DNA of 64,000 nucleotides from Chloroflexota bacterium. Its GTDB lineage: Bacteria > Chloroflexota > Anaerolineae > CG2-30-64-16. Shown piece by piece: positions 19,317 through 43,384 of this stretch. The position numbers and the translations under genes are program-made. Positions within the stretch are counted from its first letter, which is position 1. Every line of letters starts with the position of its first letter. The stretch is taken from positions 9,845 through 73,844 of the forward strand of contig JAPLHB010000190.1 of the NCBI GenBank assembly GCA_026389845.1, written 5' to 3'. The notes beneath the pieces are model-generated. The model did no database searches. It had not been told where the DNA came from and saw only the letters and a list, made by a program, of their open reading frames with translations.

Positions 19317-19845
19317 GAAGGCGAGGGGAAGCGCGCAAAGCTCTGGGGCGCGGAGCTGGCGCAGGCGATGAAGTGACCGGCCCGCGCTCATGGGCTGCTG
19401 GATCAGGCGCCGGCGCGTGTAGGCGCCGGCGCGAGCCGCGGAGGCTGTCATGCCAAGACCAACGACGAAAGCCCAAAGCCTGGCCGACACCTGACTGAAT
19501 GGGAGCAGACGAGGAAAGCCATTTTCGTGCGCCGCGATCTGCCGGGCGGCGGGTCCCCAAACCCAACGGGGGGTGCAATCCAGTCTACGCGCCATGTTCC
19601 CTCACCACAGGCGGCACTCGTCGAGCGTACACTCGAAGGCCATGGTAGCGCTTCTGTTCGATCATCCCAAGTCATGGCGCCGTGGAAGCTAGTACTGACG
19701 ACGGCCGGTGGTCGTCTTCAAGTTCAGTGAGTTTCCCAAAAGGAAAGTATTGTGCTAAACTTGGATACCAGAAAGTGTGTAGCCTCGCAACACGCGTTCT
19801 GTGCTTGTTGGATCATCTTTGCTTCGTGATGCTGAACTGATCGCC

Positions 19846-20622: not shown

Positions 20623-21163
20623 GATCGAACTCCTGTTGCAGCAGTACGAACGGCTGGTCGGTATGCCCTGGACGGAGCGTTTGTCGGGCGCCGAGAAGGT
20701 GTGGTTTGTTGTTTACGAACCGGCCCAGGAGCGCCGCCTGCGCCTGCGCCTGCAGGAGTTTCAGATCGTCACAGAGAAGGCCGGCCACGGCTGGAAATTC
20801 GTTGATCTCACGGATGCGTTTGCCCGCTGGATGACAGGCCATCGCTACCGTGAGTCCTATTTCAAGCGGCCGGAGTTGTTGAGCGAGTCCGCGCTGAGTG
20901 GGTTTGCTGCGGCTGTGGCCGATGAGATCAAAGCCGCGCTCGCCACATCCGGCGTGGATGAACGCACGGTCGTGGCGGTCGGCGGGCTGGGATCGCTGTT
21001 TGGCATCGTGCGAGCGTCCGACGTGCTAGGCCAGGTCACCCAGGCCGTTGTCGGCCGCCTGCTGATCTTCTTCCCCGGACGCTACGAAAATAAGGTCTAC
21101 CGCCTGCTGGATGCCAGGGACGGCTGGAACTACCTCGCCGTGCCGATCACCGCCGAAACATAA
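20615..21163 (+). CDS. brxB: BREX system protein BrxB (DUF1788)
   Basis: 182 aa. GTG start overlaps the brxA stop; canonical BREX-1 gene order. Confidence 0.7.
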   Translation: MSEIELLLQQYERLVGMPWTERLSGAEKVWFVVYEPAQERRLRLRLQEFQIVTEKAGHGWKFVDLTDAFARWMTGHRYRESYFKRPELLSESALSGFAAAVADEIKAALATSGVDERTVVAVGGLGSLFGIVRASDVLGQVTQAVVGRLLIFFPGRYENKVYRLLDARDGWNYLAVPITAET

Positions 21164-21170
21164 GAGGGCC

Positions 21171-21250
21171 TGTCCGCATAACTCGCAGCGCGGGCTCCCA
21201 TGCCCGCAACCGGCGGCGTGGGAGCCGCCTCCGCTGGATATTTGATAGGC
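21171..21250. repeat. palindromic REP-like element (core GCGGGCTCCCATGCCCGCAACCGGCGGCG...TGGGAGCCGCCTCCGCTGG); second copy at 33722-33824
   Basis: Near-identical core at 21185-21232 and 33741-33810, each bounded by degenerate CCTATCCGAATAA-type inverted ends. Both copies sit immediately 3' of a gene (brxB; the SPFH gene). Confidence 0.5.
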
Positions 21251-21265
21251 TCAAAGGATGAAGCC

Positions 21266-24200: not shown

Positions 24201-24733
24201 CGACCGGGCGGCCGGCCGCCTACACCGTCCGGCCGCAGGTCGAAGCGATCACCGCGCAACGTCTGCTCCTGGCCGAGCCGGACCCCGTCAAACCGTTGCA
24301 CGATGCCTTGACGACCGACCTCCGCAAGGCTGTCCAGGATGCCAGGCAGCGCGTCGTGGATGCCCGCGACCGGGAATTAGCTGCGCTGCGCGAGACGGAT
24401 GAGTGGCGCAAGCTCAGCGACGAGCAGTGGCGGGAGATTCTGCACGCCCAGGGGTTGGGGCCGATCGCGGAGCTGCACGCCGGCACCGATGACCTGCTGC
24501 TGGCCGCGCTGGACGCCAAACCGCTGGAGGCCTGGGCGACTGAGGCGCTGGTGGTCCCCACGCGCATGCGGCAGGCGCGCGAGCAGGCAGCCAAACTGCT
24601 GGAGCCGAAGGCCGTGCGCGTGCGGCCGAAGTCTGCGACGCTGAAGTCAGCAGCCGAAGTGGATGAGTACCTGGGTGTGCTGCGGGCAGAGATCATGGCG
24701 CATATCGAGGAAGGGAAGCCGGTGATTGTGTGA
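21266..24733 (+). CDS. brxC: BREX system P-loop ATPase BrxC
   Basis: Walker A GFYGSGKSH near the N-terminus; ~1150-aa size and position. Start refined to ATG 21266 (AAGGA RBS). Confidence 0.85.
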   Translation: MLNREVFTKDPTTFAIPNDGVTVVGDPQRPEEWDVLRYELTAFVCEGEYQRGLVRVLSTFLQHLSRPKQPAVWVSGFYGSGKSHFVRVLQYLWNNVTLPDGAQARGLTKLPVEVNELLTELTTEGKRHGGLWAAAGKLGTSPSIQLDMLKILFRSAGLPVDYAPARLVTWLRLKGIYDAVAAGVSQRGAELAFELANMHVSLELAESIHDAYPGLAADALAVSDKLQAEFPGKTGIDDDEMLQAMEDVLRLQSRAPGKLPLTLLVLDELQQSIGEQPDRALAVQEIVEACSTRFGSRILFVGTGQAALEATPQLGKLQDRFTVRVPLEDKDVERVVREVVLRKAPDKVPALQAVLDAASGEINRHLAGSKIGSTSADSGDLVPEYPLLPTRRRFWERALRAIDRAGTAAQLRTQLRVVHEAAKGVAARPLGTVVGADTLYDQQKSAMLLGRVLLPEIAAAIDDLRKDGSAAGVLKARLCALIFLIGELPEIGVAAPGLRATPDTLADLLVEDLTAGSAALRGQIPGLLTQLVDAGALMAVDDAYHLQTQESREWTRVFNTHTSRIKADDARIAADRSTALRGAVQEAVKKIRPVQGESKTVRRFEFYFGTDVPLAGGASAPEAVPVWVRDGWSASEKAFREEAQAAGSNSPIVFIFLPRLGDEELRSALAGTAAAVATIEAEPTPKTSQEGAAAHQAMASRLTSEAERVAGCVAVSIANARVYQGGGNEIAEGSLAAAVEAAIGNALARLFPNFKLADDANWGKVVKRAGEGAGDPLSGLGYTGNAEDHPVCKEVQTFLGIGVKKGAEVRKHFGGAGYGWGGDAIDGALLALVAGNTVRAERNGQPLAAKQIIQSQVGVTEFKNEAVIITAAQRIGVRKLIQDLGLAVKNGEEAQAIPLVLQKLCDLAAEAGGPPPLPEKPSVEAIKELQALSGNEQFAAAFDARETLLAQQRAWGQAKTAKDARLPQWGVLGRLLAHATGRPAAYTVRPQVEAITAQRLLLAEPDPVKPLHDALTTDLRKAVQDARQRVVDARDRELAALRETDEWRKLSDEQWREILHAQGLGPIAELHAGTDDLLLAALDAKPLEAWATEALVVPTRMRQAREQAAKLLEPKAVRVRPKSATLKSAAEVDEYLGVLRAEIMAHIEEGKPVIV

Positions 24734-24911: not shown

Positions 24912-25469
24912 ATGCCTGGGCTTGTCGTAGATGCCACCGGCAACGATCTCACCTACCGGATTATCGGCGCGGCCATGCGGGTGCATAACCGATTGGGGCC
25001 AGGGTATAAGGAAGAAGTGTATGAGCGGGCGCTGGCTGCGGAGTTAGAAACAGAAGGCGTACCGGTCGAAACGCAGTATCGGGTTGAGGTCTACGATCAG
25101 GGGATCCTGGTCGCGCTGTTTTTCCTGGATCTCTTTGTGGCCCGCACTGTCGTCGTAGAGGTCAAGGCCTTTGCTCATCAGCTCACGAACGATGAGCGCG
25201 CGCAGGTCATCAACTACTTGAAGGCTACCGGCGCGGCGGTGGGCCTGCTGTTCAACTTCGGCCGGCGCAGGCTGGAGTTCCCGCGCATCTTCCCCGGCGC
25301 GGCGGCCACGGGAGACGATTTGCCGCAACGCCTGGGGCGTGATAATGTCAAGAAGCGTGCCGTGCACGAGTTTGGGGCCGGGCCGCCGTCCACACCCGAT
25401 GCCAGACGCGAGAGTGGCGGGGGCCGGGCCGGGCCGCCGTCCACGAATGAAACACGAATACGCGAATAA
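24912..25469 (+). CDS. GxxExxY family protein (PD-(D/E)XK-like)
   Basis: N-terminal IIGAAMRVHNRLGPGYKEEVYERAL (GxxExxY) and VEVK motifs. The true protein is probably ~130 aa; the 3' tail of the ORF reads into the repeat array. Confidence 0.55.
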   Translation: MPGLVVDATGNDLTYRIIGAAMRVHNRLGPGYKEEVYERALAAELETEGVPVETQYRVEVYDQGILVALFFLDLFVARTVVVEVKAFAHQLTNDERAQVINYLKATGAAVGLLFNFGRRRLEFPRIFPGAAATGDDLPQRLGRDNVKKRAVHEFGAGPPSTPDARRESGGGRAGPPSTNETRIRE

Positions 25470-25752
25470 TGACGGGCGGCCATTCGTGGATTCGTGACGG
25501 ATTCGGGGACGGCGACGACCCGACGCGAGAGCAGCGGGGGCCGGGCCGGGCCGCCGTCCACGAATGGGACACGAATTCACGAATAGCGGCGGGCGGCCAT
25601 TCGTGGATTCGTGACGGATTCGGGGACGGCGACGACCCGACGCGAGCGTAGCGGGGCCGGGCCGCCGTCCACGAATGAAACACGAATTCAAGAATAACGA
25701 CGGGCGGCCATTCGTGTATTCGTGGCGGATTCGTGGACGGCGACGACCCGGC
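25411..25752. repeat. tandem array of three ~118-bp palindromic repeat units
   Basis: Units begin near 25411, 25530 and 25648. Each contains the inverted (CACGAAT)3 arms and a GGGCCGGGCCG spacer-like GC stretch. There is no unique spacer content. Confidence 0.6.
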
Positions 25753-25781
25753 CTCCTCCCACAGACCCAAGAATAGGAACC

Positions 25782-28700
25782 ATGCCATCCCTACCCACCG
25801 ACCTCCGCAAAACCCTTGAAAATGCCATCAACGCGGCCCGGCGGGCCGCGGAGGAGGCGGCGCGCGCCGCGTTGACCACGCTGGCCGTCGCCCGCGACGA
25901 CCCGTTCGCGACCATGGACGAGCCGCAGCGCCAACTGCGCCGCGGCCTGCGCGCGGTGGCGCGCCGACTGGGCGATGACACAAAGTCCGACGCGTTGCCC
26001 CTCCTGACCCACGAGGTCGCCTACGAGCAGTGGCACCGCATGTTGTTCGCTCGCTTCCTGGCCGAGAACGATCTGCTGATGCACCCCTCTGGTGTCGCAG
26101 TGTCGCTGGCGGATTGCGCGGAACTGGCCCCTGACGAAGGCGCGGCCGACGCCTGGGACCTGGCCGCGCGCTACGCGGCTGCGATGTTGCCCGGCATCTT
26201 CCTGGCGGACGATCCGACCGTCCAGGTGCGCTTTGCGCCGGAGGGCCGCCAGCGGCTCGAAGCGATCCTGGCCGGCCTGCCGCCCGCGGTCTTCACCGCC
26301 GACGACGGCCTGGGGTGGGTCTACCAGTTCTGGCAGACGGACAAGAAGCGTGAAGTGAACGCCAGCGGCCGCAAGATCGGCGGGGCCGACCTGGCGCCGG
26401 TGACGCAGCTCTTCACCGAAGACTACATGGTGCGCTTCCTGCTGGAGAACTCGCTCGGCGCGTGGTGGGCGGCGCGCCACCCGGATAGTCCGCTGGTGAA
26501 GGAGTGGGGTTATTTACGGTGGGTGGACGAGGAGTCAGGAGTCAGGAGTCAGGGAGCAGGAGGCAGCGACGGCAATACGCAATACGCAGTACGCAGTACG
26601 CAATACGCAGTACGCAATACGCCGTCCCGCGTCCCCGCCGCCGGCGCCTTCCCCGGCTGGCCCGACCGCGCGGCGCAGGTGACGATGATGGATCCCTGCG
26701 GCGGGTCGGGGCATTTCGTGGTGGCCGAGTTCGGCATGATGCTGCGCATGCGGATGGAGGAGGAGGGGCTGAGCGCGTCCGCGGCCGGCGACGCGGTGAT
26801 CCGCGATAACCTCTTCATGCTGGAGCTGGACCCCCGCTGCACGCAGATCGCGACCTTTGCGCTGGCGTTAGCGGCCTGGAAGAGCGGCGGCTACCGGCCG
26901 CTGCCGACCCCCAACATCGCCTGCTCCGGCATCGCAGTGACGGGACAGCTCGAGGACTGGCTGCGCCTGGCCCGCGGGGACGAACGGCTGCGCACCGCGC
27001 TGGAACGACTGCACAAGCTCTTTACGAACGCGCCCACCCTGGGCAGCCTGATCAATCCCGCGGACGTGCCGCTGAGCGAGCGGATGTTCAGCGCCGACTA
27101 CGAGGAGGTGGCGCCGCTGTTGGGGAAGGCGTTGGCAAAGGAGCGGGACGATCCGGCCGCGGCCGTGTTGGGCGCTGCGGCGGAGGGGGTGGCGAAGGCA
27201 GCGAAGCTGCTGGCAGGGCAGTACACGCTGGTGGCGACGAATGTGCCGTATCTGGGACGCAGCCTCCAGACAGAAACGCTCAAGAACTTTGCAGACAGGG
27301 TTTTTCCAGTCTCAAGGGCTGACCTGGCCACCGTTTTTGTGGAGCGTTCTCTGTCATTTACAGACTCGGGTGGTACCTGTGCGGTTGTCACCCCTCAGAA
27401 CTGGCTGTTTTTGAAATCGTATGAAGAACTTCGCAGGAAATTGCTTCAGTCCCAGTCGTGGAACCTGCTTGCGAGATTGGGTGCTCAAGCATTTCAGACC
27501 CCGATGTGGGATTTCAATGTTGGGCTATTTATCGTCACACACCGTCCACCGGCAGAAAACCATGAAGTGGGAGGAACGGACGTCTCACGTAGCCGAAAGC
27601 CATCGGTCAAGGCCGATTTGTTGCGGAATGACCCAATTCGGTTCGTTAACCAAGAGAGCGAGCTACGAAATCCCGATACGAGGATCACGCTCGAAAAAGC
27701 CAACCTTGGTGCGTTGCTCCTGCATTATGCAGACGGGCTGCAGGGAATCTCCCCGGCAGACTATCCCAGGTTCGGTCGTTGCTTTTGGGAGCTACCAAGA
27801 CTAATCGAGGGCTGGCGATGGTATCAAGGCACGGTTAGTTCTACGATGCCCTTTGGTGGACGCGAAAGAGTTCTCTGGTTTGACGCTCTCTTGCGAGCAG
27901 CACAGGAGCTTGGTTCTGCAATTCGAGGCCGAGCTGCGTGGGGCAAATGGGGTGTGGCAATAAGCCAGATCGGGAAACTCTCCGCGAACTTGTACACAGG
28001 CGATTTGTTCGACAACAACTTGGCGGCTCTGATTCCACACGATCAGACTTTGCTTCCCGCGCTGTGGGCTTATTGTCAGTCCCCGACCTTCCACGACCAA
28101 GTCAGGCGAATCGATCAGAAGCTCTACGTCCAGAATGCTACGCTGGTGAAAATTCCTTTCGACCTTGACTACTGGCAGCAAGTCGCAGACGCGGCCGGCC
28201 CCCTCCCCGAGCCGTACTCCGACGACCCCACCCAATGGCTCTTCAACGGCCACTCCGCGGGCGCCACCGAGCCGCTGCAGGTGGCCGTGGCGCGGCTGTT
28301 GGGCTATCGCTGGCCGCAGCAGGCCCAGGACCACCTCGGCGCCCACGCCGATGCGGATGGCATCGTCTGCCTGCCCGCGGTGGGCGGCGAACAGCCGGCG
28401 GCCGAACGCCTGCGCGCGCTCCTGGCCGCAGCCTTCGCCAATCCGCAATCCCTGCCCAACACCGCAGACGCCGGGCACGCAATACGCAGTACGCAATACG
28501 CCGGATGGTCGGCCGCTGTCCAGGAGCAGTTGCTCGCCGCGGCCGGATTCCCCAGCAAGACCCTGGACGACTGGCTGGCCGACGGCTTCTTCCCGCAGCA
28601 CTGCCGCGTCTTCCACAACCGGCCCTTCATCTGGCATGTCTGGGACGGCCGCAAAGATGGCTTCTCGGCGTTGGTCAACTACCACAAGCTGGATCGCGCT

Positions 28701-29084
28701 GTCCTGGAGAAACTGATCTATACTTACCTCGGCGCGTGGATCACCCGCCAGCGCGATGACCGCGACGCCGGCGCCCCGGCCGCGGAGGGGCGGTTGGTGG
28801 CCGCGCTGGCGCTGCAGAAGAAGCTGATCGCCATCCTGGAGGGGGAGCCGCCGTACGACATCTACGTGCGCTGGAAGCCGCTCCATCAGCAGCCCATCGG
28901 CTGGGCGCCGGACCTCAACGACGGCGTGCGGCTCAACATCCGGCCATTTGTCACAGCGGGCGTGCTGCGGAGCCGGTTCACGATCAATTGGAAGGTGGAC
29001 CGCGGCACGAATCCGGACGGCAGCGAGCGGATCAATGATCGGCACGTCACGCGGGCGGAGAAGCTGGCGGCGCGGGGAAAGTGA
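25782..29084 (+). CDS. pglX: BREX-1 adenine-specific DNA methyltransferase PglX
   Basis: ~1100 aa; DPCGGSGHF (motif I) region; C-terminal block conserved with the remnant at 31331-31568; canonical position. Start refined to ATG 25782. Confidence 0.85.
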   Translation: MPSLPTDLRKTLENAINAARRAAEEAARAALTTLAVARDDPFATMDEPQRQLRRGLRAVARRLGDDTKSDALPLLTHEVAYEQWHRMLFARFLAENDLLMHPSGVAVSLADCAELAPDEGAADAWDLAARYAAAMLPGIFLADDPTVQVRFAPEGRQRLEAILAGLPPAVFTADDGLGWVYQFWQTDKKREVNASGRKIGGADLAPVTQLFTEDYMVRFLLENSLGAWWAARHPDSPLVKEWGYLRWVDEESGVRSQGAGGSDGNTQYAVRSTQYAVRNTPSRVPAAGAFPGWPDRAAQVTMMDPCGGSGHFVVAEFGMMLRMRMEEEGLSASAAGDAVIRDNLFMLELDPRCTQIATFALALAAWKSGGYRPLPTPNIACSGIAVTGQLEDWLRLARGDERLRTALERLHKLFTNAPTLGSLINPADVPLSERMFSADYEEVAPLLGKALAKERDDPAAAVLGAAAEGVAKAAKLLAGQYTLVATNVPYLGRSLQTETLKNFADRVFPVSRADLATVFVERSLSFTDSGGTCAVVTPQNWLFLKSYEELRRKLLQSQSWNLLARLGAQAFQTPMWDFNVGLFIVTHRPPAENHEVGGTDVSRSRKPSVKADLLRNDPIRFVNQESELRNPDTRITLEKANLGALLLHYADGLQGISPADYPRFGRCFWELPRLIEGWRWYQGTVSSTMPFGGRERVLWFDALLRAAQELGSAIRGRAAWGKWGVAISQIGKLSANLYTGDLFDNNLAALIPHDQTLLPALWAYCQSPTFHDQVRRIDQKLYVQNATLVKIPFDLDYWQQVADAAGPLPEPYSDDPTQWLFNGHSAGATEPLQVAVARLLGYRWPQQAQDHLGAHADADGIVCLPAVGGEQPAAERLRALLAAAFANPQSLPNTADAGHAIRSTQYAGWSAAVQEQLLAAAGFPSKTLDDWLADGFFPQHCRVFHNRPFIWHVWDGRKDGFSALVNYHKLDRAVLEKLIYTYLGAWITRQRDDRDAGAPAAEGRLVAALALQKKLIAILEGEPPYDIYVRWKPLHQQPIGWAPDLNDGVRLNIRPFVTAGVLRSRFTINWKVDRGTNPDGSERINDRHVTRAEKLAARGK
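26531..26626 (+). repeat. two adjacent heptanucleotide tandem-repeat tracts inside pglX: (GAGTCAG)3-5 then (AATACGC/AGTACGC)7
   Basis: Direct reading of 26531-26626; encodes ...SGVRSQGAGGSDGNTQYAVRSTQYAVRNT... inserted just before motif I. A shorter (3-unit) copy of the ACGCAATACGCAGTACGC tract recurs at 28481-28501. Confidence 0.7.
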
Positions 29085-29174
29085 GTCAGTAAGCCTATCG
29101 GATTGTGGTAGAATAGGCGCGACGCTCGGAGCGAGTCTCGAGACATCTGCACAGCCAAGGAAGGAGGCCCCCAC

Positions 29175-30275
29175 ATGCAGATTCGCAGGGTCATTCTTAA
29201 ACAAGTTCGCAACTTTCGCGATTTCGACCGCTCCTTCGAGGACGGTTGGACCGGCCGCGTGCCTGACGCGCTGCTGCTGATGGGTTCAAACGGCAGCGGC
29301 AAAAGCACGCTGTTGGACGCGATGGCAGCCCTCTGGCAGGGCCTGGCAGACTCGCTGCATGGGGGAAATCCCCTGACCGATGCCGTAGGGTCGCGCCTTT
29401 TGCAGTCGGCGGACCTGGCTGCAATGGAAGTGATAGGATTCGAGCAAGAGTCACTATGGATTTATGCGGGCAGACAGGATCCCGCCCGGGAATTCGCGGC
29501 CGCCCATGCCAACGCGCACCGGTTTGGGTTGCAGTACCATTATTTCCTTTCCCCGGAAGAGTTGCGCGGCACGCACATCAGCGGCGTCTACACGCCGCCC
29601 GGACTCCCGGAGCGAGATAGCGAGGGTGGACGAAAGCAGGCCGCGATCTGGACCGAACGACTGACCGACCGACTGACCGAGAACCAACTCGGAAAGCGGG
29701 CCGATCTGCCGAACCTCGTGTACCTGGCCAGTGAAAACCGGCTGTTGCTTCCGTTGACCGAGAAATTCAGTGTCCAACCGGAGCCGGAGGAGTACCAGTG
29801 GCTGGCCCGCTACGAGCCGGTCGCCAGCCGCCGAGGTAGTCTGCAGAACTACCTCTACAACTTGAAGGTCGTGGATGAGGTCAGGTTCAACGAGATCGCG
29901 TCACAGTTCAGTGCGTTCCTGGTCGGCAAACGGCTGAATGGCTTCGACCGGCGCACCGGCAACCTGTTGGTGCAGGTTGGCAACGGAGAAAGCCACCCGA
30001 TCGAGGAACTGAGTAGCGGCGAGAAGCAAGTGCTCCTGATGCTGGCAACGATCACCCGCTGGCTGTGGCCCGGCGGCATCGCGTTGGTTGACGAGCCGGA
30101 CCTTCATCTGCACGTCTCGTTGGCGAGGGCGTTCGTCAGCCACCTGCGGCGGATGGTAGAGGAGAAAGGTGGCCAACTCATCATTGCTTCCCACATGCCG
30201 GAACTTTGGGAGGAATTCACCGACTCTCACCGGGTGCGGCTGAACGCATCCGATGAAAAGGGGCAGACCAAGTGA
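29175..30275 (+). CDS. AAA15/ABC-type ATPase, PARIS AriA-like
   Basis: Walker A GSNGSGKST, ABC signature-like LSSGEKQ, Walker B IALVDEPDLHLH; 366 aa; immediately followed by a DUF4435/Toprim gene with a 4-bp overlap. Strong RBS AAGGAAGGAGG. Confidence 0.55.
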   Translation: MQIRRVILKQVRNFRDFDRSFEDGWTGRVPDALLLMGSNGSGKSTLLDAMAALWQGLADSLHGGNPLTDAVGSRLLQSADLAAMEVIGFEQESLWIYAGRQDPAREFAAAHANAHRFGLQYHYFLSPEELRGTHISGVYTPPGLPERDSEGGRKQAAIWTERLTDRLTENQLGKRADLPNLVYLASENRLLLPLTEKFSVQPEPEEYQWLARYEPVASRRGSLQNYLYNLKVVDEVRFNEIASQFSAFLVGKRLNGFDRRTGNLLVQVGNGESHPIEELSSGEKQVLLMLATITRWLWPGGIALVDEPDLHLHVSLARAFVSHLRRMVEEKGGQLIIASHMPELWEEFTDSHRVRLNASDEKGQTK

Positions 30276-31096
30276 GCCAGACACCACGGTGGGTCAGAGA
30301 TATTGAGAGTCTGGCTCGTGGCCTTCCCGTTCTGTTGGTCGAAGGCGAGGACGACGTCACCCTGCTCGGGTATTTTCTGGGCCAGCACGCTCCCGGCTGG
30401 CAGCAGCGCCTCTACCTGGCGGCGGCAAACGGCAAGGGCCACGTCGTTAGCGGCGTGGCCGTCCACCGTCCTGACTGGATCGGAATTGTGGATCGCGATG
30501 AATGGAGCCCAGCCGACGTCCAAGCGGCCGCGGCACGCTCTCCGCGACTGCACGTCCTGCCGCGCTTCTGCACCGAATCCTACTTCTGCGATCCGGCCGA
30601 GCTTTGGGCCGCCCTCCCGGCGCAACAGCAGGCACGCGCGGGGGATAACCTCCTTGCGCTGGCCGGGCCGATTCACGCCAAACTTCCCGACTGGGTGGCA
30701 CACGGCGCGATGTGGCGCGTCCTGCGCGACCTCTACAAGGAGGCGCGGCTGCCGGCCAAGCTAGAGGATAGTCCGGTGACCGACGAAGCGACCATCCGTA
30801 GCATTCTCACCGACTGGCACGCCCGCCTTGCTCCCGACCCGGTCTTGGCGCACTATCGCAATGAATTGGGCAACGCCCAAACACTCGCTGCGGCGGCACA
30901 ACTGCACGAATACATCCACGGCAAGAAGTTTTTCAACCAAGTCGTGGTCCAGGTGTTGGATGGGTTGTTCGCCGGTAAGGGCGCCGACGACTGGTTACAA
31001 AAGTTGCGCGATGCCCCGATCCTGTCGCCGCCCGATTTGGTTGCGCTGTTCGATCAAATCCTGGCCCAGTTGCCCAGACAGGCCCCTCATGAGTGA
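30272..31096 (+). CDS. DUF4435 (OLD-family Toprim) protein, PARIS AriB-like
   Basis: Toprim catalytic motifs VLLVEGEDD (Glu) and GIVDRDEW (DxD); 274 aa; coupled to the upstream ATPase. Confidence 0.55.
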   Translation: MSQTPRWVRDIESLARGLPVLLVEGEDDVTLLGYFLGQHAPGWQQRLYLAAANGKGHVVSGVAVHRPDWIGIVDRDEWSPADVQAAAARSPRLHVLPRFCTESYFCDPAELWAALPAQQQARAGDNLLALAGPIHAKLPDWVAHGAMWRVLRDLYKEARLPAKLEDSPVTDEATIRSILTDWHARLAPDPVLAHYRNELGNAQTLAAAAQLHEYIHGKKFFNQVVVQVLDGLFAGKGADDWLQKLRDAPILSPPDLVALFDQILAQLPRQAPHE

Positions 31097-31568
31097 GCCA
31101 ATTGCGTTTCTCGAAGCGCTGGTTGCCGCGCTGCAACGCGCCGGCAGCTATAACAAAAACGACCAGTGCCCACCGGCGGCCATCCTCTGGCCCGATAAGG
31201 AGCGGCAGTGGGAACCTTTGTTGCCGGTGCTGCGTGAGCGGCTGCCGCTGCTGACCCTCGGCTCTTACGCACCAACTCAACGCACTGGCCCGGCCTATTG
31301 GCTGCGCTGCATGATCGCGCGAACCCTGCCCTACGACATCTACGTGCGCTGGAAGCCGCTCCAGCAGCAGCCCATCGGCTGGGCGCCGGATCTCAACGAT
31401 GGGGTGCGGCTCAATATCCGGCCGTTCGTGACCGCCGGCGTGCTGCGCAGTCGGTTCACGATCAATTGGAAGGTGGATCGGGGGACGAACCCGGATGGGA
31501 GCGCGCGGGTGAATGATCGGCACCTGACGCGCAGCGAGAAACAGGCCGTGCGCCGGTCATACCCATAG
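31089..31568 (+). pseudogene. chimeric remnant: pglZ 5' end (~80 codons) fused in frame to pglX 3' end (~78 codons)
   Basis: MSEPIAFLEALVAALQRAGSYNKNDQCPPAAILWPDKERQWEPLLP...MIARTLP is near-identical to the PglZ N-terminus (34294-). The following YDIYVRWKPLQQQPIGWAPDLNDGVRLNIRPFVTAGVLRSRFTINWKVDRGTNPDG... is near-identical to the PglX C-terminus (28850-29084). Confidence 0.65.
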
Positions 31569-31690
31569 GCATGACTTGACGGCTGGTCTGGCGTAAGTTT
31601 TGCGCAATCACAGGCTGAATCGCTTGCGGGCTGACAAAGTCAGCATTTGGTATCGCCGTCATAAGTACCTAAACTCAAGGAGGTAGGATC

Positions 31691-33718
31691 ATGATCATGG
31701 TGATCGGAATAGCTCTGCTCATCGTCGTGTTGGTGGTGCTGGCGTTGCTCGCCTTGTCGGGCATCCGCTTCATCCCCAACAACCGCGTTGGCATCGTCGA
31801 GAAGCGCTTCGGCGCCAAGTCCGTCGAGACCGGCTTTATCGCACTCAAGGGAGAGGCTGGCTTCCAACCCAAGCTGCTGCGCGGGGGCCTGCACTACCTG
31901 ATGCCGATCCAGTATCTCGTCCACCGTTCGCCCCTGGTGACCATCACCCAGGGCAAGATCGGCTACGTCTTTGCGCGCGACGGGCATCCGCTGGTGCCGA
32001 TGCAGGTGCTGGCTTCGAACGTCACCGCCAATGACTTTCAGGATGTGGCCGCGTTCCTGCAAGACGGCGGCCAGCGCGGGCCACAGCGTCAGATCCTGCG
32101 CGAAGGCACCTACGCCATCAACCTGGCGCAGTTTATCGTCATCACCGAGGAGAAGGTCTACTACCTGCCGCTCAACCGCGCCGAAGAAGGGGTCATACAG
32201 GATATGGCCAAGGTGATCGCCGAGCGTGACGGCTTTCGGCCGGTAGTGCTCAAGGATCAGGACGACAAGACCGGCATTGTGACGATCCACGACGGACCCT
32301 CGTTGCCGCCGGACGAGATCATCGCGCCCATCGTGGGCGGCGACCCAACCAACGTGGAGACGTACCACAATAACTTCCAGGCGCCTGACCGGTTCCTGAA
32401 GGCCGGCGGCCTGCGAGGGCGCCAGTTGCAGGTCTTGGTCGAAGGCACCTACTATCTCAACCGGCTGTTTGCCACGGTGGAGATGATCCCCAAGACCATC
32501 ATCGAAATCGGGACCGTCGGCGTGGTGGTTTTCTACACCGGCGAGGCCGGCCGTGACCTGTCGGGCGAGGACTATCGGCATGGTGAGTTGGTGGCGAGAG
32601 GCCATCGCGGCGTGTGGGACGCGCCGCTCATGCCGGGCAAGTACGCGTTCAACACCTACGCCGGCAAGGTCGTGGCGGTCCCCACTACCAACGTCATCCT
32701 GAAGTGGATCCGAGGCCAGGTCGGCTCGCACCACTTCGACGAGAACCTGGCGGAGATCTCGTTGATCACCAAGGACGCCTTCGAGCCGTCGCTGCCGCTG
32801 TCGGTGGTCATGCACATTGACTACCGCAAGGCTCCCCTGGTGGTCCAGCGCTTCGGCGACGTGAAACGGCTGGTCGAGCAGACCCTCGACCCCATGGTGT
32901 CGGCCTACTTTAAGAACATCGGCCAGACGCGCACGCTGATCCAGCTCATCCAGGAGCGCGGCAACATCCAGCAGATTTCGAGTCAGGAGATGAAGGAAAG
33001 GTTCACGCACTATAACCTGGAGCTGGAAGAGGTGCTGATCGGCACGCCGGTCGCGATGGCCGAGGACAAACAGTTCGAGCTTATCCTGAACCAACTGCGC
33101 TCCCGGCAGATCGCCGTAGAGCAGATCGAGACCTATGGACGGCAGCAGATGGCGGCAGGGAAGGAACGGGAGCTGCGCGAGGCACAGGCGCGCGCTGATC
33201 AGCAGCGCAACATCACCGAATCGGAGCTGAGCATCACGGTGCAGAGCAACCAGGGCAAGGCCGAATACGCCCGGGCGCTGCAGCAGGCGGCGCAGATCCG
33301 CGCCCTGGCCGAAGCTGAGGCCGAAAAGACCGCCCGCGTCGGCATCGGTCAGGCCATCGCCATCGAGGAACAGGTGGCGGCCTATGGCGGCCCGCAGTTC
33401 CAGGTCACGCAGCAGGTGATGAACCGCTTTGCCGAAGCGGTGCAGCAGTCGAAAGTGGACGTGGTGCCGCGCGTGGTGATTGGCGGCGCCGGGGGCACTG
33501 CGACCAGCAGCGGCGTGATGGAAGGGCTGTTGACGCTCCTGCTATCCGACAAGCTAGGCCTGGAAGTGAGCGCCGCTCGGCAGCGAGAACCGAATCCGCA
33601 AGCGGACCAGTTGCGGGCTCAGATCCGCGAGGGCCTCAAGGAGAGCCGGCAGGGCACAGCCGGGCCAGTGCCGCCCGCCCCGGCCCCGGCTGGCCCGTCG
33701 GGGGCGAAGCCGGCTTAG
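31691..33718 (+). CDS. SPFH/band-7 (flotillin-like) membrane protein with long C-terminal coiled coil
   Basis: N-terminal TM helix, SPFH-like IRFIPNNRVGIVEKRFG region, Ala/Glu/Gln-rich coiled coil and C-terminal Pro/Ala tail; AAGGAGG RBS 8 nt upstream. Confidence 0.55.
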   Translation: MIMVIGIALLIVVLVVLALLALSGIRFIPNNRVGIVEKRFGAKSVETGFIALKGEAGFQPKLLRGGLHYLMPIQYLVHRSPLVTITQGKIGYVFARDGHPLVPMQVLASNVTANDFQDVAAFLQDGGQRGPQRQILREGTYAINLAQFIVITEEKVYYLPLNRAEEGVIQDMAKVIAERDGFRPVVLKDQDDKTGIVTIHDGPSLPPDEIIAPIVGGDPTNVETYHNNFQAPDRFLKAGGLRGRQLQVLVEGTYYLNRLFATVEMIPKTIIEIGTVGVVVFYTGEAGRDLSGEDYRHGELVARGHRGVWDAPLMPGKYAFNTYAGKVVAVPTTNVILKWIRGQVGSHHFDENLAEISLITKDAFEPSLPLSVVMHIDYRKAPLVVQRFGDVKRLVEQTLDPMVSAYFKNIGQTRTLIQLIQERGNIQQISSQEMKERFTHYNLELEEVLIGTPVAMAEDKQFELILNQLRSRQIAVEQIETYGRQQMAAGKERELREAQARADQQRNITESELSITVQSNQGKAEYARALQQAAQIRALAEAEAEKTARVGIGQAIAIEEQVAAYGGPQFQVTQQVMNRFAEAVQQSKVDVVPRVVIGGAGGTATSSGVMEGLLTLLLSDKLGLEVSAARQREPNPQADQLRAQIREGLKESRQGTAGPVPPAPAPAGPSGAKPA

Positions 33719-33828
33719 TGCCTATCCGAATAATAGCAGCGCGGGCTCCCATGCCCGCAACCGGCGGCGGGCGAAAGTACAGCCGATGTCTGGGAGCCGC
33801 CTCCGCTGGTTATTCGGATAGGCTGAGC

Positions 33829-34024
33829 TATACTCGGCACGGTCACAAAATGCGCTTGTAGGCGGCTGTCATTCTGAGCGGGTCTACCCCTGACTTCTCG
33901 TGACGGCGAGCATCCAGCGAAGAATCCGTCCCGCGACGAGACCCCTTCGACTGCGCTCAGGGCAGGCTCTTCGCTGGATTTTCACCGCGACGCACTTCAC
34001 GGGACCAACCCGCTCAGGGTGACA
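33829..34024. repeat. MITE-like repeat, copy A (inverted termini TGTCATTCTGAGCGGGT / ACCCGCTCAGGGTGACA)
   Basis: Shares >85% identity in blocks with copies at 34076-34241, 43091-43308, 46622-46755 and 49619-49768. Internal palindromes ATCCAGCGAAGAATC / CTTCGCTGG and CTTCGACTGCGCTCAGG. Confidence 0.6.
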
Positions 34025-34075
34025 AAGCCAAGGTTTCAGCGCCGCGAAAAACGCAGTCTATGCCCGTGTGCAGTA

Positions 34076-34241
34076 TATACTCGGCACGGTCACAAAATGC
34101 GCTTGTAGGCGGCTGTCATTCTGAGCGGGTCTACCCCGTGTCGTGCGTGGCGGCGAGTCTCTAGCGAAGGGTCTTGTTGCAGTATGGAACGGATTCTTCG
34201 CTGGTTTCACGCCGCAACGAGGAGTCTGGGGCTAACCCGCT
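34076..34241. repeat. MITE-like repeat, copy B (short variant)
   Basis: Same 5' block ATACTCGGCACGGTCACAAAATGCGCTTGTAGGCGGC plus inverted termini TGTCATTCTGAGCGGGTCTACCCC ... GGGGCTAACCCGCTCAGAATGACA. Confidence 0.6.
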
Positions 34242-34293
34242 CAGAATGACAATTATTCACTCATGAAATAGCTGAACCGATCAGTGAGGCGCC

Positions 34294-36612
34294 ATGACTG
34301 ATAGCATGACCTTCCTTGATGCGCTGGCGCAAGCTATCTATCGCGCGGGCAGCTACAACAAGAATGACCAATGCCCGCCGGCCGCGATCCTCTGGCCCGA
34401 CAAGGAGCGCCAGTGGGAGCCGCTGCTGCCGGCGCTGCGCGAGCGGCTGCCGCTGCTGACTCTCGGCCCCTACGCGCCCCAAGAGCGCAGCGGCCCGGCC
34501 TGCTGGCTGCGCTGCATGATCGCGCGCACGTTGCCCGACGACATCCTGCCGGCCGACGCCGCCCCGATCATCTATCTGCCGGGGGTCAGCCGCGCCGAAA
34601 TCCGCGCCATCGAGGAGTGCCCCAAGCCGCTCCAGCCGCTCGCCGAGCTTCAGTACCGCGGCGTGCTGTGGACGCACAAGAACGGCCGCGACTGGACGGT
34701 CGCCGGCTTCTTGCAGAGTACCGACAGTGGCCTGGGCATCGCCGTCAGCGGCGACACAGCCACGAAGGAAGCGCTTGGTCGGGCGTTGCTCAAGCTGGCT
34801 TACGAACCGGTAGCTCGCCTGAAGAAGGAGGCGCCGCTCCGTGCGGCCTTCTTCGACGAATTGCTCAACCCGGATCAAGTACGACGTCTGTTGCTCTGGC
34901 TTAATGACCCCGATAGCTACCCAAAGACCCTGGCCCAGGCCGAGTGGTACGCATTTTGCGACCTCTGCAAGCGCACATACGGCCTTCACCCCGTGGACGA
35001 CGGCGCGCTGATCGCGGCGGAACGTCTCGGGACTTCGCAGGGCGCCTGGGAGATCGTCTGGGACCGCTTCAACGAGAATCTGGAGGGGTATCCCAACCTG
35101 CCGGAACTCCTGCGCCGGGCGCGGCCGGAACGATCTATCTTTGAAAAGAGCCTGCCCTACTGGCCGCAGGACACCGAAACGGCCGAGGGGGACTTGCGCG
35201 CGGCGCTGCTGGCGTTGGGCGATGCTTCACCGACCGGCGCGCGCGAGGGCATCGCGCAGCTTGAGGCCGAGCACGGCGCGCGCCGCGGCTGGATCTGGGC
35301 CAGGCTGGGCCGGGCTCCACTCGCCGCCGCGCTGGCACATCTGGCGGCCCTGGCCCAGGCAACCGAGAAAACGCTCGGCGGCGCGACTGTGGCCGACGTA
35401 GCCGCGGCTTACACTGGAGGGGGCTGGCAGGCAGATGCCGCCGTGTTGGATGCGTTGGCCGCGGTTGAGGCCGCGGAGGACGTGGCAGCAGTGAAGGCCG
35501 CGCTCCTGCCGCTCTACCGCCCGTGGCTGGAAAAAGCAGCGGCGGCGCTCCAGGCCGCCATCCTCGGCAACCCGGTAGCGAACTATGGGACGACGACGCC
35601 ACCGGCAGCCGATGCGGGCACGTGCATCTTGTTCAGCGATGCCTTGCGTTTCGATGCCGGCATGAGGCTGGTGGCCGCGCTGGAGCGCCGGGGCCTGTCA
35701 TGTACCACCGGGTGGCGCCTGGCCGCCCTGCCAACCGTCACGCCGACAGCCAAGCCCGCGGTTTCGCCTGTCGCTGAACTGATGATTGGCAGCAGCGAGC
35801 CGAGCCTGACCCCGGTGGTCAAAGCGACCGGCGCGAGCAGTACGGTTGCCACCTTGCGCAAGCTGCTCGAAGGGGCCGGCTACCAGATCCTGACCGGGGA
35901 TGCCCTCGGCGATCCGAGCGGGATGGCGTGGACCGAGTTGGGCGCGATAGACCAGTACGGCCACGAGCACGGTTGGGAGGTGGCGCATCATCTGCCGGGC
36001 GAGCTGCGCAACCTCGAAAGACGGATCGACGCGCTGCTGAGCCACGGCTGGCAGCAGGTGATGGTCCTCACCGACCACGGCTGGCTCCTGCTCCCCGGCG
36101 GCCTGCCGAAGATCGAGCTGAAAGAGCATCTGACCGTGCTCCGCAAGGGCCGCTGCGCCGCGCTCAAAGAGGGCGCGCAGACCGATCAGCACACGATCCC
36201 GTGGCATTGGGACAAGAACGTGCGTATCGCCGTAGCGTCGGGCATCGCCTGTTACGAGGCCGGCAAAGAGTACGAGCACGGCGGCATCAGCCCGCAAGAG
36301 TGCGTCGTGCCGGTCATCGCGGTCTCAAGGCCGGTTGCCACCATCGCCCAAGAGACCCAAATCACCGGCGTCACCTGGAAGGGGCTGCGCTGCTCGGTCT
36401 CAGTGAGTGGGGCGGGTGCGGGCATGACCGCCGACATCCGCACCAAGGCGGGCAACGCGGCCACGTCGCTCACCACGCCGCGACCCGTCGAGACCGGCGC
36501 CGCGTCACTGTTGGTCGAGGATGACGACCAACTGGGCGCGGCTGCGTTCGTCGTGGTCCTTGCAGCAGATGGGTCGCTCGTGGCACAAACACAGACCACG
36601 ATTAGCGGATAA
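34294..36612 (+). CDS. pglZ: BREX-1 alkaline-phosphatase-superfamily protein PglZ
   Basis: 772 aa, PglZ-type phosphatase domain (TDHGW, QYGHEHG metal-binding segments); canonical position before brxL. Confidence 0.85.
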   Translation: MTDSMTFLDALAQAIYRAGSYNKNDQCPPAAILWPDKERQWEPLLPALRERLPLLTLGPYAPQERSGPACWLRCMIARTLPDDILPADAAPIIYLPGVSRAEIRAIEECPKPLQPLAELQYRGVLWTHKNGRDWTVAGFLQSTDSGLGIAVSGDTATKEALGRALLKLAYEPVARLKKEAPLRAAFFDELLNPDQVRRLLLWLNDPDSYPKTLAQAEWYAFCDLCKRTYGLHPVDDGALIAAERLGTSQGAWEIVWDRFNENLEGYPNLPELLRRARPERSIFEKSLPYWPQDTETAEGDLRAALLALGDASPTGAREGIAQLEAEHGARRGWIWARLGRAPLAAALAHLAALAQATEKTLGGATVADVAAAYTGGGWQADAAVLDALAAVEAAEDVAAVKAALLPLYRPWLEKAAAALQAAILGNPVANYGTTTPPAADAGTCILFSDALRFDAGMRLVAALERRGLSCTTGWRLAALPTVTPTAKPAVSPVAELMIGSSEPSLTPVVKATGASSTVATLRKLLEGAGYQILTGDALGDPSGMAWTELGAIDQYGHEHGWEVAHHLPGELRNLERRIDALLSHGWQQVMVLTDHGWLLLPGGLPKIELKEHLTVLRKGRCAALKEGAQTDQHTIPWHWDKNVRIAVASGIACYEAGKEYEHGGISPQECVVPVIAVSRPVATIAQETQITGVTWKGLRCSVSVSGAGAGMTADIRTKAGNAATSLTTPRPVETGAASLLVEDDDQLGAAAFVVVLAADGSLVAQTQTTISG

Positions 36613-36741
36613 GTGTAGGGCAATTTGCCAAATTGCCCTACAGAACCGACCGGAATAGAGCCTTCAGGCGGTCTGGCGAGCGCACGAACCGGCTGAAGCC
36701 TTGAATCCAGAGCAGCGGGGAGCGATTTTCAGGACGGTAAG

Positions 36742-38787
36742 ATGGAACTGGATAGGTTGGACCAACTCGCGGCCGAAGCATTCACGGGGTACGTCGTCCG
36801 CAAGGACCTGGCTCTGCGGTTTCGCGGCCAGTATCCCGTGCCGACCTACGTCGGCGAGTTCCTGTTGGGACGCTACTGCGCCAGCACCGACCCGGCCGAG
36901 ATCGCGGAAGGGCTGGAGATCGTCGAGCGCCAGATGCGCGAGCGCACCGTGCGGCCGGGCGAGGAAGAGTTGTTCAAGTCACGGGCGCGCGAGCGCGGCT
37001 CAGTCAAGCTGATTGATCTGATCACCGCGCGGCTGGACACCGCGACCGACTCCTACCTGGCCACGCTGCCCAGCCTGCGCTTGCGCGACGTGCGCATCGA
37101 CGCGGAGACGGTCGCGGGCAACGAGCGCATGTTGACCGGCGGCTTCTATGCCGAAATCCAGCTTGAGTACGACGCCGCGATTGCCCAGGAACGCAACGGC
37201 CGGCCCTTCGGCATCACCGCCTTGCGCCCCATCCAGCTTTCCAAGCGCGGCGTTTCGGATGACCTGGCCCGCGGCCGCGCGGCCTTCACCACCGAGGAAT
37301 GGCGGCAACTCCTGTTGCGGAGCGTCGGCTTCGAGCCGGAGCAGTTCACCCGGCGGGCACAAGACATTCTGCTCCTGCGTATGGTCCCGTTCGTCGAGCG
37401 CAACTTCAACGTGGTGGAGCTTGGTCCGCGCGGCACCGGCAAGTCACACCTCTACCAGCAAATCTCCCCCTACTCGCACCTGGTCTCCGGCGGCAAGGCC
37501 ACCGTGGCGCAGATGTTCGTCAACAACGCCACGGGCCAACGCGGCCTGGTGTGCCTCTACGACGTGGTCTGCTTCGATGAGGTCTCCGGCATCGCCTTCG
37601 ACCAGCGGGACGGCGTCAACATCATGAAGGGCTACATGGAGGCCGGGGAGTTCAGCCGGGGCCGCGAGAACATCCGCGCCAGTGGCAGCATCGTCATGGT
37701 GGGCAACTTCGAGGTGGACGTGGAGCATCAGCAGCGGATCGGCCACCTGCTGGGCCCGCTCCCGCCGGAGATGCGCAACGACACCGCCTTCATGGATCGC
37801 ATCCACGCCTACCTGCCCGGCTGGGACGTGCCCAAGCTCGACCGCGCCCTGTTCACCGAGCACTTCGGACTGGTGAGTGACTTCCTGTCAGAGGGTTGGT
37901 CACAACTGCGTGCCGAGAACCGGCTGCCGGTCGTCGCGAGCCGCATCCGCTACGGCAGCGCGATCAGCGGCCGCGATGCCAACGCCATCAACCACACCGT
38001 CAATGGCCTGCTCAAGCTGCTCTATCCCGACCGCGAGATGGCGATCAGCGATGAAGACCTGGCATGGGCCGTGGAACTGGCGCTGGAGTGTCGCCGCAGG
38101 GTGAAGGAGCAGCAGAAGCGCATCGGCAGCGCAGAGTTCCGCAACACCCACTTCAGCTATCAACTCGGCGTCGAAGGGGTCGAGAAGTTCGTCGTGACAC
38201 CGGAGCTACAAAGCACCCAGGCCATCGGCAGCGATCCGCTGCCGCCGGGCCAGGTGTGGGGCATCAGCCCCGGCGGTCCGGACGAAGGCGCCGGCCTCTA
38301 CCGGATTGACGTCAACGTGGGGCCGGGCGCCGGCGTGCGCATCGTCAACTTCCCCGCGCCGGGGCCGTTCCGCGAGAGCATCAAGTACGGCGAGCAGAAC
38401 CTGATCATGCGTGCCCGCGAGCTCGTCGGCGACCGCGACCCGCGCCAGCACGAGTTCACCGTGCAACTGCGCGCCTTCGACGCGGCCAAGACCGGAGCGT
38501 TCCTGGGCCTGCCCGCGCTGCTGGCATTCTGCAGCGCGCTGCTGGGCAAGAGCCTGAAGGGTGGCCTGATCGCCGTCGGCGCGCTCAACCTGGGCGGCGG
38601 CCTCGACCCGGTCTACAACGCCGTCAACGTTGCCGAGTTGGCGATCGAGAAGGGCGCGTCCATGCTGCTCATCCCCATCTCCGCCCGCCGGCAGTTGAAC
38701 GAGCTGTCGGACGAGATGGCGATGAAGCTGACGATCCTGTTCTATGCGGACGCGCGCGAGGCGCTGTTGAAGGCGCTGGGGGATTAG
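36742..38787 (+). CDS. brxL: BREX system Lon protease-like protein BrxL
   Basis: 681 aa; AAA+-like P-loop GPRGTGKSH plus C-terminal Lon protease-like domain; terminal gene of the BREX-1 operon. Confidence 0.85.
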   Translation: MELDRLDQLAAEAFTGYVVRKDLALRFRGQYPVPTYVGEFLLGRYCASTDPAEIAEGLEIVERQMRERTVRPGEEELFKSRARERGSVKLIDLITARLDTATDSYLATLPSLRLRDVRIDAETVAGNERMLTGGFYAEIQLEYDAAIAQERNGRPFGITALRPIQLSKRGVSDDLARGRAAFTTEEWRQLLLRSVGFEPEQFTRRAQDILLLRMVPFVERNFNVVELGPRGTGKSHLYQQISPYSHLVSGGKATVAQMFVNNATGQRGLVCLYDVVCFDEVSGIAFDQRDGVNIMKGYMEAGEFSRGRENIRASGSIVMVGNFEVDVEHQQRIGHLLGPLPPEMRNDTAFMDRIHAYLPGWDVPKLDRALFTEHFGLVSDFLSEGWSQLRAENRLPVVASRIRYGSAISGRDANAINHTVNGLLKLLYPDREMAISDEDLAWAVELALECRRRVKEQQKRIGSAEFRNTHFSYQLGVEGVEKFVVTPELQSTQAIGSDPLPPGQVWGISPGGPDEGAGLYRIDVNVGPGAGVRIVNFPAPGPFRESIKYGEQNLIMRARELVGDRDPRQHEFTVQLRAFDAAKTGAFLGLPALLAFCSALLGKSLKGGLIAVGALNLGGGLDPVYNAVNVAELAIEKGASMLLIPISARRQLNELSDEMAMKLTILFYADAREALLKALGD

Positions 38788-43067: not shown

Positions 43068-43090
43068 TGCATTTCGCTCCTTGTCTCTAT

Positions 43091-43308: not shown

Positions 43309-43384
43309 CGGCGAGTGCTATAGTATCACGATAAGCGCAACTGATGGCCGTTGACAGTGCGGCGCGAGCACAGGGCTGCGCCAC

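Follow-up and report, generated by a model that had tools for sequence, protein, structure and literature searches.

Between pglX and pglZ of the type 1 bacteriophage exclusion (BREX-1) operon of an uncultured Chloroflexota bacterium lies an open reading frame (ORF) of 159 codons that begins as pglZ and ends as pglX. The stretch analysed, referred to throughout as the window, comprises 64,000 nucleotides (nt) of contig JAPLHB010000190.1. The 159-codon ORF is probably the scar of an illegitimate join between two diverged BREX-1 loci, a join that stacked the inserts of both between the same two genes, with homology-facilitated illegitimate recombination as its likeliest route. The 5.2 kb that separate the pglX stop codon (which ends at 29084) from the pglZ start codon (at 34294) hold, all on the + strand and in this order, an AriA-like and an AriB-like gene (29175-30275 and 30272-31096) resembling the phage anti-restriction-induced system, PARIS; the chimeric ORF (31089-31568); a gene for an SPFH/Band-7 membrane protein (31691-33718); and a spacer of structured repeats (33719-34293).

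The chimeric ORF fuses PglZ residues 1-81, in frame, to PglX residues 1044-1118. Its pglZ part (codons 1-81, 31089-31331, + strand) is matched by the PADLOC PglZ model over residues 8-81 (E 2e-27) and by the NCBIfam PglZ type B model over residues 7-81; its pglX part (codons 82-159 plus stop, 31332-31568, + strand) is matched by PADLOC PglX over residues 75-156 (E 1e-29). In blastp, residues 82-156 are 90.7% identical to residues 1044-1118 of the resident PglX, after which the chimera keeps a divergent tail of its own; every conserved residue of the PglX C-terminus is retained. A preliminary description, made from the letters of the sequence, had pointed to a chimeric pglZ-5'/pglX-3' ORF that switches in frame from MIARTLP to YDIYVRW, and translation and profile matches confirm it exactly: the PglZ part ends ...CMIARTLP and the PglX part continues YDIYVRW... 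The protein is 100% identical to the hypothetical protein NT169_24900 of a Chloroflexi metagenome-assembled genome (MAG), found by protein search, and has no relative among solved structures.

The switch falls on an 8-nt microhomology, ACGACATC (31333-31340, + strand), read from the sequence and its alignments and common to resident pglZ (34538-34545) and resident pglX (28855-28862). Across the joint the resident pglZ reads TTGCCCGACGACATCC, the resident pglX CCGCCGTACGACATCTAC and the remnant CTGCCCTACGACATCTAC; apart from ACGACATC the two genes are unrelated there. Counted in codons, the joint is 81 from the pglZ start and 75 from the pglX end, and because it sits on 8 nt of microhomology and out of register, at least one illegitimate join is needed to make it. 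The preliminary description had attributed the stacking to homologous recombination through the pglX-3' and pglZ-5' ends that border the cargos (the arms). Recombination through the arms alone would swap one cargo for another; it cannot fuse pglZ codon 81 to PglX residue 1044, and a microhomology-mediated join is therefore required.

A pglX end followed by a pglZ start does occur twice in the window, as first described, each time split by a different cargo, and the DNA repeats bear this out. They are, at the same time, substantially diverged. On the pglX side, 31328-31552 is 86% identical to 28850-29074 over 225 nt (33 of the 225 differ; the resident arm that matches the remnant extends from 28850 to 29084, + strand). 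On the pglZ side, 31088-31340 aligns gap-free with 34293-34545 at 78% identity, 54 of 243 nt differing between the pglZ part of the ORF and the resident arm (34294-34536, + strand). These matches are far above chance (blastn E 1e-25 to 1e-65 against homologous gene ends in other loci). Measured against the resident genes, the non-synonymous and synonymous divergences (dN and dS) are 0.054 and 0.645 for the pglX part and 0.13 and 0.92 for the pglZ part, with dN/dS of 0.08-0.14 for the two halves. Such high dS at a dN/dS of about 0.1 implies that the copies drifted apart while still belonging to working genes of separate lineages; it also implies that the remnant has spent only a short time as a pseudogene and that its halves were joined recently.

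The divergence of the arms rules out a recent local duplication, and it assigns one set of gene ends to a second, foreign BREX locus. Near-identical repeats, which a local tandem duplication should leave and which the preliminary description had expected, are not found at the arms: the junction was not copied in place but imported. That description had named a remnant not near-identical to the resident ends as evidence against itself; the divergence that the alignment reveals is taken here as a sign of foreign origin rather than as a refutation. A tandem duplication in situ, of pglX-3', cargo and pglZ-5' together, followed by divergence and by replacement of one of the cargo copies, would also border the seam with direct repeats of both gene ends. 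It is hardly credible: a decaying pseudogene copy should approach a dN/dS of at least 0.5, far from the values just given, one cargo bears no relation to the other, and the path takes more steps.

The differences in the pglX-3' arm are not evenly spread. Remnant and resident differ at 2 positions in the first 59 nt and at 30 in the next 166 nt, and the arm contains exact-match runs of 32, 26 and 26 nt; compared with about 60 other loci, the same 59-nt patch has at least 4 mismatches (median 11-12). On alignment evidence this near-identical patch would fit a tract of homologous exchange or conversion in the arm. No clear signal that recombination keeps the arms similar was found across 51-55 diverse loci, in which identity at four-fold sites is 0.33-0.39 at the pglX 3' end versus 0.26-0.30 in mid-gene and is flat in pglZ; the C-terminus of PglX is conserved as protein, and so are other PglX regions.

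Which parent contributed what can be read in part from the first cargo. The AriA-like protein is matched by the PADLOC models AriAB (E 2e-24) and AriA (E 2e-20) and by Pfam AAA_21, AAA_15 and SMC_N, which places it among OLD-family ABC ATPases; PtuA and other ABC ATPase models match it as well. The AriB-like ORF (274 amino acids, overlapping ariA by 4 nt) has a weak match to PADLOC AriB (E 1e-9) confined to residues 20-119, and none in Pfam or NCBIfam. Its stop codon and the ATG that opens the chimeric ORF overlap (ATGAGTGA). Another locus, L004, has the same register: there a homologous AriA gene (76% amino acid identity) is followed without a break by the final ~29 nt of ariB and by a full-length pglZ. 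The overlap of the ariB stop with the remnant's ATG, taken with the arrangement in L004, indicates that PARIS and the pglZ start belonged together natively in one of the parents; the other plausibly contributed the pglX end, the SPFH gene, the repeats, pglZ and brxL.

The sequence of events would then be as follows. One parent, a BREX-1 locus with the PARIS-like pair directly upstream of pglZ, would have supplied the pglZ 5' end, and a second, diverged BREX-1 locus with the SPFH gene downstream of pglX would have supplied the pglX 3' end. A single out-of-register joint at ACGACATC would have fused the two, and one ordinary homologous exchange in the BREX genes that the parents share would have finished the product: a single BREX operon, complete with its six genes, in which the two inserts are stacked in the pglX-pglZ gap. 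The most likely course is that incoming DNA found a homologous anchor in pglZ/brxL or in pglX and that its other end was joined at ACGACATC. We infer the second, homologous exchange, its place, and which of the two sides is the resident one. The window's identity to the related locus L001 is mosaic (66% for PglX, 81% for PglZ and 95% for BrxL, as amino acids), which is compatible with an anchor exchange; the sliding identity of pglZ-brxL against L001 has no clean breakpoint, only the mosaic. Two pairs of diverged direct repeats would permit later loss of either cargo by homologous recombination.

The window is not alone. Searching 5.8 billion sequences with the chimeric protein returned 933 matches, and among the best 120 of these, which were examined, there are three true pglZ-5'/pglX-3' chimeras, two of them (P0003 and P0024) additional to the window ORF. 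P0003 (120 amino acids) occurs in three MAG assemblies (L001-L003) and joins PglZ 1-54 to PglX 1053-1118. The order there is a pglX truncated by an insertion sequence, genes for a 2044-amino-acid AAA_22 protein and a 431-amino-acid protein, the scar, a GmrSD type IV restriction enzyme with small genes, pglZ and brxL; in L001 the joint rests on the microhomology GCCRCT, and the arms of the remnant differ from the resident ends by dS of 0.24 and 0.59. P0024 (113 amino acids), also from three assemblies (L081-L083), lies between PDC-M41A/B and a SoFic gene; the scar in L081 connects PglZ codon ~48 to PglX residue ~1054 over a microhomology of about 5 nt. With their differing joints and differing defence cargos, the chimeras of the window, of L001-L003 and of L081-L083 are independent, and the remnant's role as a seam between two stacked cargos, first proposed for the window, recurs in the other two groups. 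Two further loci have scars of the pglX 3' end only: in L004 (residues 1071-1118) the order is an HTH gene, the fragment, AriA and pglZ, and in L005 (~residues 1078-1118) it is pglX, a toxin-antitoxin-like pair with one more gene, the fragment and a NB-ARC STAND NTPase. An older module kept beside a new one is thus a pattern of several lineages (the window, L001-L003, L081-L083, L004 and L005).

Some candidates were set aside. Many short proteins among the matches, made of a PglX C-terminus or of a PglX end followed by a PglZ start, had at first suggested that remnants are widespread, but six of these proteins (P0002, P0004, P0007, P0011, P0018 and P0032) are frameshift-fragmented genes on low-coverage long-read contigs and were not counted as remnants; L078, with a solitary pglZ 5' fragment ending ...CMIAR, L170 and L171 are decayed BREX loci, not stacking events. 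The last two are further cases of illegitimate fusion at the pglX 3' end. In L171 (4552-5127, P0053) the partner of PglX ~1029-1114 is a brxA-like 5' part; the locus retains cargo, pglZ and brxL but no longer has brxB, brxC or the greater part of pglX. In L170 (10001-10369, P0060) a pglX 3' end stands alone, 3.4 kb ahead of a candidate further brxA-brxB-brxC set, judged by gene lengths alone (260, 181 and 1151 amino acids).

The recurrence bears on two competing accounts of the ORF. One is that two strains' BREX loci were merged by metagenome mis-assembly. The window is a single MAG contig, and co-existing strains with different cargos are plausible enough, but the account is highly improbable: pglZ-5' and pglX-3' share only 8 nt, too short for a k-mer assembler to bridge, a switch between strains would stay in register instead of passing from one gene into a different one, and the equivalent chimeras were each recovered three times, from independent assemblies. 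The other is that the ORF encodes a small, functional protein under selection, which might act as a regulator, divert anti-BREX proteins as a decoy or connect cargo and BREX as an adaptor. The reading frame is intact in all three chimeras, the one in the window has all the conserved PglX C-terminal residues, and a fusion of the PglZ N-terminal domain to Schlafen AlbA_2, conserved in six species at the same position (see below), shows that fusions of the pglZ start can persist there as intact genes. A selected function is very unlikely all the same: the joints differ (pglZ codons 81, 54 and ~48) and share no domain boundary, the pglZ part covers under half of the ~190-residue N-terminal domain, the conserved GW motif is gone from the L001 remnant, whose dN/dS is 0.34, and such proteins number only three among the best 120 of 933 matches. 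The chimeric ORF is, then, probably a scar and non-functional as a product. Its reading frame may nonetheless matter: ribosomes that start at the old pglZ start, coupled to ariB, end at the old pglX stop, and polarity on the downstream genes may thereby be avoided.

Two other routes would lead to the same arrangement. In the first, two complete BREX-1 loci lay in tandem, and a single microhomology deletion from pglZ codon 81 of locus 1 to PglX residue 1044 of locus 2 removed pglZ-3', brxL, brxA'-brxC' and most of pglX', leaving one hybrid operon with both cargos. One illegitimate event would give the exact product observed, and internal deletions of the microhomology type do occur (between brxA-5' and pglX-3' in L171, within pglZ in L054 and within pglX in P0066); in L170 an orphan pglX 3' end adjoins what looks like another BREX locus, and L029 has tandem pglX genes. 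This deletion is unlikely, however: no tandem pair of complete BREX-1 loci is present among 77 genome loci, and the end points should spread over ~4 kb and 9 kb, whereas all three independent joints are at most 250 nt from a cargo.

In the second, pglX-3', cargo and pglZ-5' looped out of a donor locus at a microhomology, so that the resulting circle already contained the joint, and a single homologous crossover in an arm then inserted it into another BREX locus. It would account for the short arms (the smallest circle with enough homology) and for the constant joint of pglZ-5' to pglX-3', and the 59-nt patch that opens the pglX-3' arm could be the crossover or conversion tract; the exact-match runs are in that arm too. 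We consider it quite unlikely. A non-replicating circle would have to pass between hosts as diverged as the dS of 0.65-0.92 implies, arms that are 78-86% identical over ~230 nt are a poor substrate for RecA, no arm-flanked cargo is found on viral contigs, and the pglX-3'-only scars of L004 and L005 do not fit the joint that a circle would leave.

An illegitimate join between two diverged loci, guided by homology, is the reading that we prefer. Short microhomology is present at each joint, as described above for the window, L001 and L081, and the foreign origin of the remnant is indicated both by its dS against the residents and by its start codon, which is coupled to ariB as the pglZ start is in L004. 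Site-specific insertion of cassettes is not indicated: the three joints are at different positions, there is no Rfam element in 28500-34600, and no recombinase gene is found among the ten larger flanking ORFs that were scanned. Relatives of the arms were not found on viral contigs, and on plasmids there are only 8 distant matches.

A number of observations weigh against this reading. No parental locus with pglX, SPFH and pglZ in that order is present among 80 loci with SPFH homologues, and no donor closer than ~84% nt identity was found. The joint of the window is known from the assembly of a single MAG. All joints are confined to pglZ codons 48-81 and PglX residues 1044-1055, within 250 nt of cargo on both sides, and all three chimeras are in frame; the simplest form of the model predicts neither the frame nor the clustering. 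Putative selection against long, dominant-negative fragments and against polarity on pglZ/brxL is a plausible explanation of short, in-frame scars, and a search at the protein level favours in-frame cases in any event. Finally, BREX loci of E. coli (PglZ type A), searched with the pEFER pglX-3'/pglZ-5' junction as query, have no duplicated arms in 385 matched genomes (388 places in 387 records); at the sensitivity limit of that search, ~70% nt identity, the phenomenon is not general.

The boundary between pglX and pglZ is a site of insertion well beyond the window. Among 57 species-representative loci of the BREX-1 subfamily with both gene ends on one contig, 21 have an insert of 0.3-8.4 kb between pglX and pglZ, and in the other 36 the two genes are 3-140 nt apart. 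The inserts include genes for AAA_14-DUF4143 ATPases, HTH-peptidase M78 proteins, OLD-type ABC ATPases with DUF4276, GmrSD-HNH, HNH proteins and the PglZ-N::Schlafen fusion. The survey supports the suggestion of a hotspot at this boundary, with varied, defence-type genes as cargo. In pairs of loci such as L067 and L072, identity is 85-94% in pglZ and over the final 500-900 nt of pglX, but the cargos are unrelated.

The fusion just referred to is a gene of ~361 codons directly between pglX and pglZ, conserved in six species (L074 8861-9943; L007 from 5396, L012 from 11702, L021 from 1143, L070 from 6650 and L071 from 12149). Its protein begins with ~190 residues of a diverged PglZ type B N-terminal domain (NCBIfam E 1e-51) and ends in a Schlafen AlbA_2 domain (Pfam E 4e-13); a duplicated pglZ 5' end seems to have been built into a new gene here. 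In L029 (7085-13458, an Anaerolineales MAG) two full-length pglX genes in tandem, each ~51% identical to PglX of the window, precede a single pglZ. Three MAGs assigned to Verrucomicrobia (L067), Saccharimonadales (L069) and Bifidobacterium (L077) have a pglX 3' end, an AAA_14-DUF4143 cargo and a pglZ that are 65-90% identical as nucleotides. Upstream of that cargo, L069 has a further ~1.9 kb of inserted sequence and L077 a further ~2.8 kb, without a scar; the comparison suggests transfer across phyla (or binning error) plus scar-free stacking.

A more ambitious generalization can be entertained: that the pglX-pglZ boundary of PglZ type B BREX-1 is a recombinase-free platform for gene capture, at which cargos move with short arms and stack, only in-frame scars survive, preserving translational coupling, and the repeats let cells shed or reshuffle their cargos. 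We regard this as a speculation with the odds rather against it.

The second cargo of the window is of a different kind. The SPFH gene (Pfam Band_7, E 6e-12) is 91% identical in nucleotides, over exactly 31672-33718, to two metagenome loci outside BREX (L087/L088); none of 80 loci with homologues has BREX genes nearby, and PADLOC has no match for it. It is an unusual passenger, captured as a single gene, and, as a cargo, not a typical BREX cassette. The spacer that follows it, 33719-34293 (fold z-score -14), consists of a long palindrome (33720-33823) and, just upstream of pglZ, two tandem copies (~33829-34030 and ~34076-34255) of an element resembling a miniature inverted-repeat transposable element, identified like the palindrome by repeat analysis; a third copy lies at ~43090-43310. 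The element is ~200 nt long, strongly self-complementary and ends TGTCATTCTGAGCGGG...CCCGCTCAGAATGACA. A motif, GCCTATCSGAWT, with an expected count of 0.04 in the window, occurs at 29093-29104, 33720-33731 and 33812-33823, 9 nt past the pglX stop and 2 nt past the SPFH stop, and in each case forms the base of a hairpin; the sequence that once followed pglX may survive in it as a relic, now on both sides of the captured SPFH gene. Predicted promoters and terminators in 28900-34400 do not exceed shuffled expectation.

The operon that houses these inserts is complete: its six genes are intact, co-oriented and on the + strand. They are brxA (19801-20622; PADLOC BrxA, E 9e-87), brxB (20615-21163; PADLOC BrxB, E 2e-72), brxC (21200-24733; PADLOC BrxC, E 0), pglX (25722-29084; PADLOC PglX, 1385 bits over residues 22-1119, with Pfam Eco57I/N6_Mtase, an intact methyltransferase gene whose true start is possibly a few codons further downstream), pglZ (34294-36612; PADLOC PglZ, E 3e-279) and brxL (36742-38787; Pfam BrxL_N and BrxL_ATPase). 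PglZ scores 860 bits on the NCBIfam equivalog for PglZ type B, NF033450, for which the cut-off is 400, and the operon, judged from its genes, is of type 1, PglZ type B subfamily, in a Chloroflexota host.

Other boundaries of the operon also contain extra sequence. A second embedded gene lies between brxC and pglX (24912-25746 region); it encodes a GxxExxY/PD-(D/E)XK_3 nuclease (24912-25469, + strand; TIGR04256, E 6e-35) and is followed by a 117-nt tandem repeat, present three times and with internal inverted repeats, that extends into the annotated pglX start. The gap between pglZ and brxL (36613-36741) is ~125 nt here versus 4 nt in the close relative L001, and by alignment this second boundary, too, has received an insertion. 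Within its frame, pglX holds heptanucleotide tandem repeats (AGGAGTC x5.3, GCAATAC x7.3 and ACGCAAT x3.6, at 26530-26622 and 28477-28501) corresponding to a segment at PglX residues ~270-300 that is missing from most homologues. With one 7-nt unit more or fewer the frame would shift, and slipped-strand phase variation of the methyltransferase could be the result; pglX of Streptomyces phase-varies through a G-tract.

That foreign genes reside within BREX operons is well documented. Went et al. (2024) found genes between BREX components in ~7000 of ~9000 genomes, with embedded genes in most genomes that have co-localised pglX and pglZ; of the known systems, BrxU and PARIS were among the commonest, and PARIS lies between pglX and pglZ in the BREX locus of Salmonella D23580 (PMC11341690). 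A 2026 survey adds many embedded BREX effectors (PMC12839542). (BrxU of pEFER is located between brxC and pglX, not in the gap between pglX and pglZ.) The window and L001 share with the embedded type 1 genes the pglX-pglZ site, the operon orientation and overlapping cargo types (a PARIS-type pair in the one, GmrSD in the other). In contrast, what has been described is co-localisation, not arrival: duplicated gene ends and chimeric remnants go unmentioned in both of these papers and in the StySA genetics paper.

The closest parallel is found in another kind of locus. Kirchberger et al. (2017) attributed the orphan immunity arrays of the Vibrio type VI secretion system, and the displaced C-terminal modules of Rhs and contact-dependent inhibition (CDI) loci, to homology-facilitated illegitimate recombination (PMC5361080), which, as cited there from de Vries and Wackernagel (2002) and Meier and Wackernagel (2003), joins DNA at GC-rich microhomologies of 3-10 nt near a homologous anchor. 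In those arrays, too, a module brings along a piece of a conserved flanking gene, one side is homologous and the other illegitimate, and the old module is displaced yet kept, with remnants in between; there, however, the conserved anchor is one-sided and it is toxin tips and immunity genes that are displaced, whereas the BREX locus has two different conserved flanking genes and a scar in which the start of the downstream gene is fused to the end of the upstream one. The immigration control region of E. coli, whose restriction genes vary like cassettes between conserved flanks (Sibley and Raleigh, as cited in PMC9009780), shares conserved flanks and variable defence content, as do defence hotspots flanked by core genes, and exchange through flanks fits the pair L067/L072. 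Replacement in such hotspots proceeds without scar or stacking, and the BREX flanks, unlike theirs, are genes of the same operon that BREX needs to function. Integron cassettes are likewise promoterless cargo stacked in order at one site; the BREX locus has, in contrast, no integrase and no attC-like conserved sites, and its joint differs in position each time. The hotspot and the recombination mechanism are thus already known, and the initial statement that stacking in BREX was without precedent holds only in part: embedded genes, PARIS included, and illegitimate stacking in type VI secretion/Rhs loci are published, and no description of a chimeric scar in BREX, or of stacking there by an out-of-register illegitimate join, was found in the literature. 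The footprint of the scar in BREX is the new part.

The reach of the finding is limited by the small number of cases, so far from one BREX subfamily in uncultured bacteria, and by a mechanism that is familiar from other systems. What it adds concerns arrival. Defence genes were known to sit inside BREX operons; how they come to be there without breaking the operon had no description. The scars are physical evidence for one route, an exchange between diverged BREX loci that pairs one homologous with one microhomology-mediated join, and they indicate that inserts can accumulate and do not merely replace one another. Small 'hypothetical' genes of the pglZ/pglX chimera kind are accordingly to be read as scars, not as new components of defence, and duplicated gene ends with chimeric small ORFs provide a searchable signature of recent cargo gain. 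Together these features offer a concrete model for the growth of a defence island within an operon, and if the speculation about a gene-capture platform proved true, it would be a general way for such an island to grow there.

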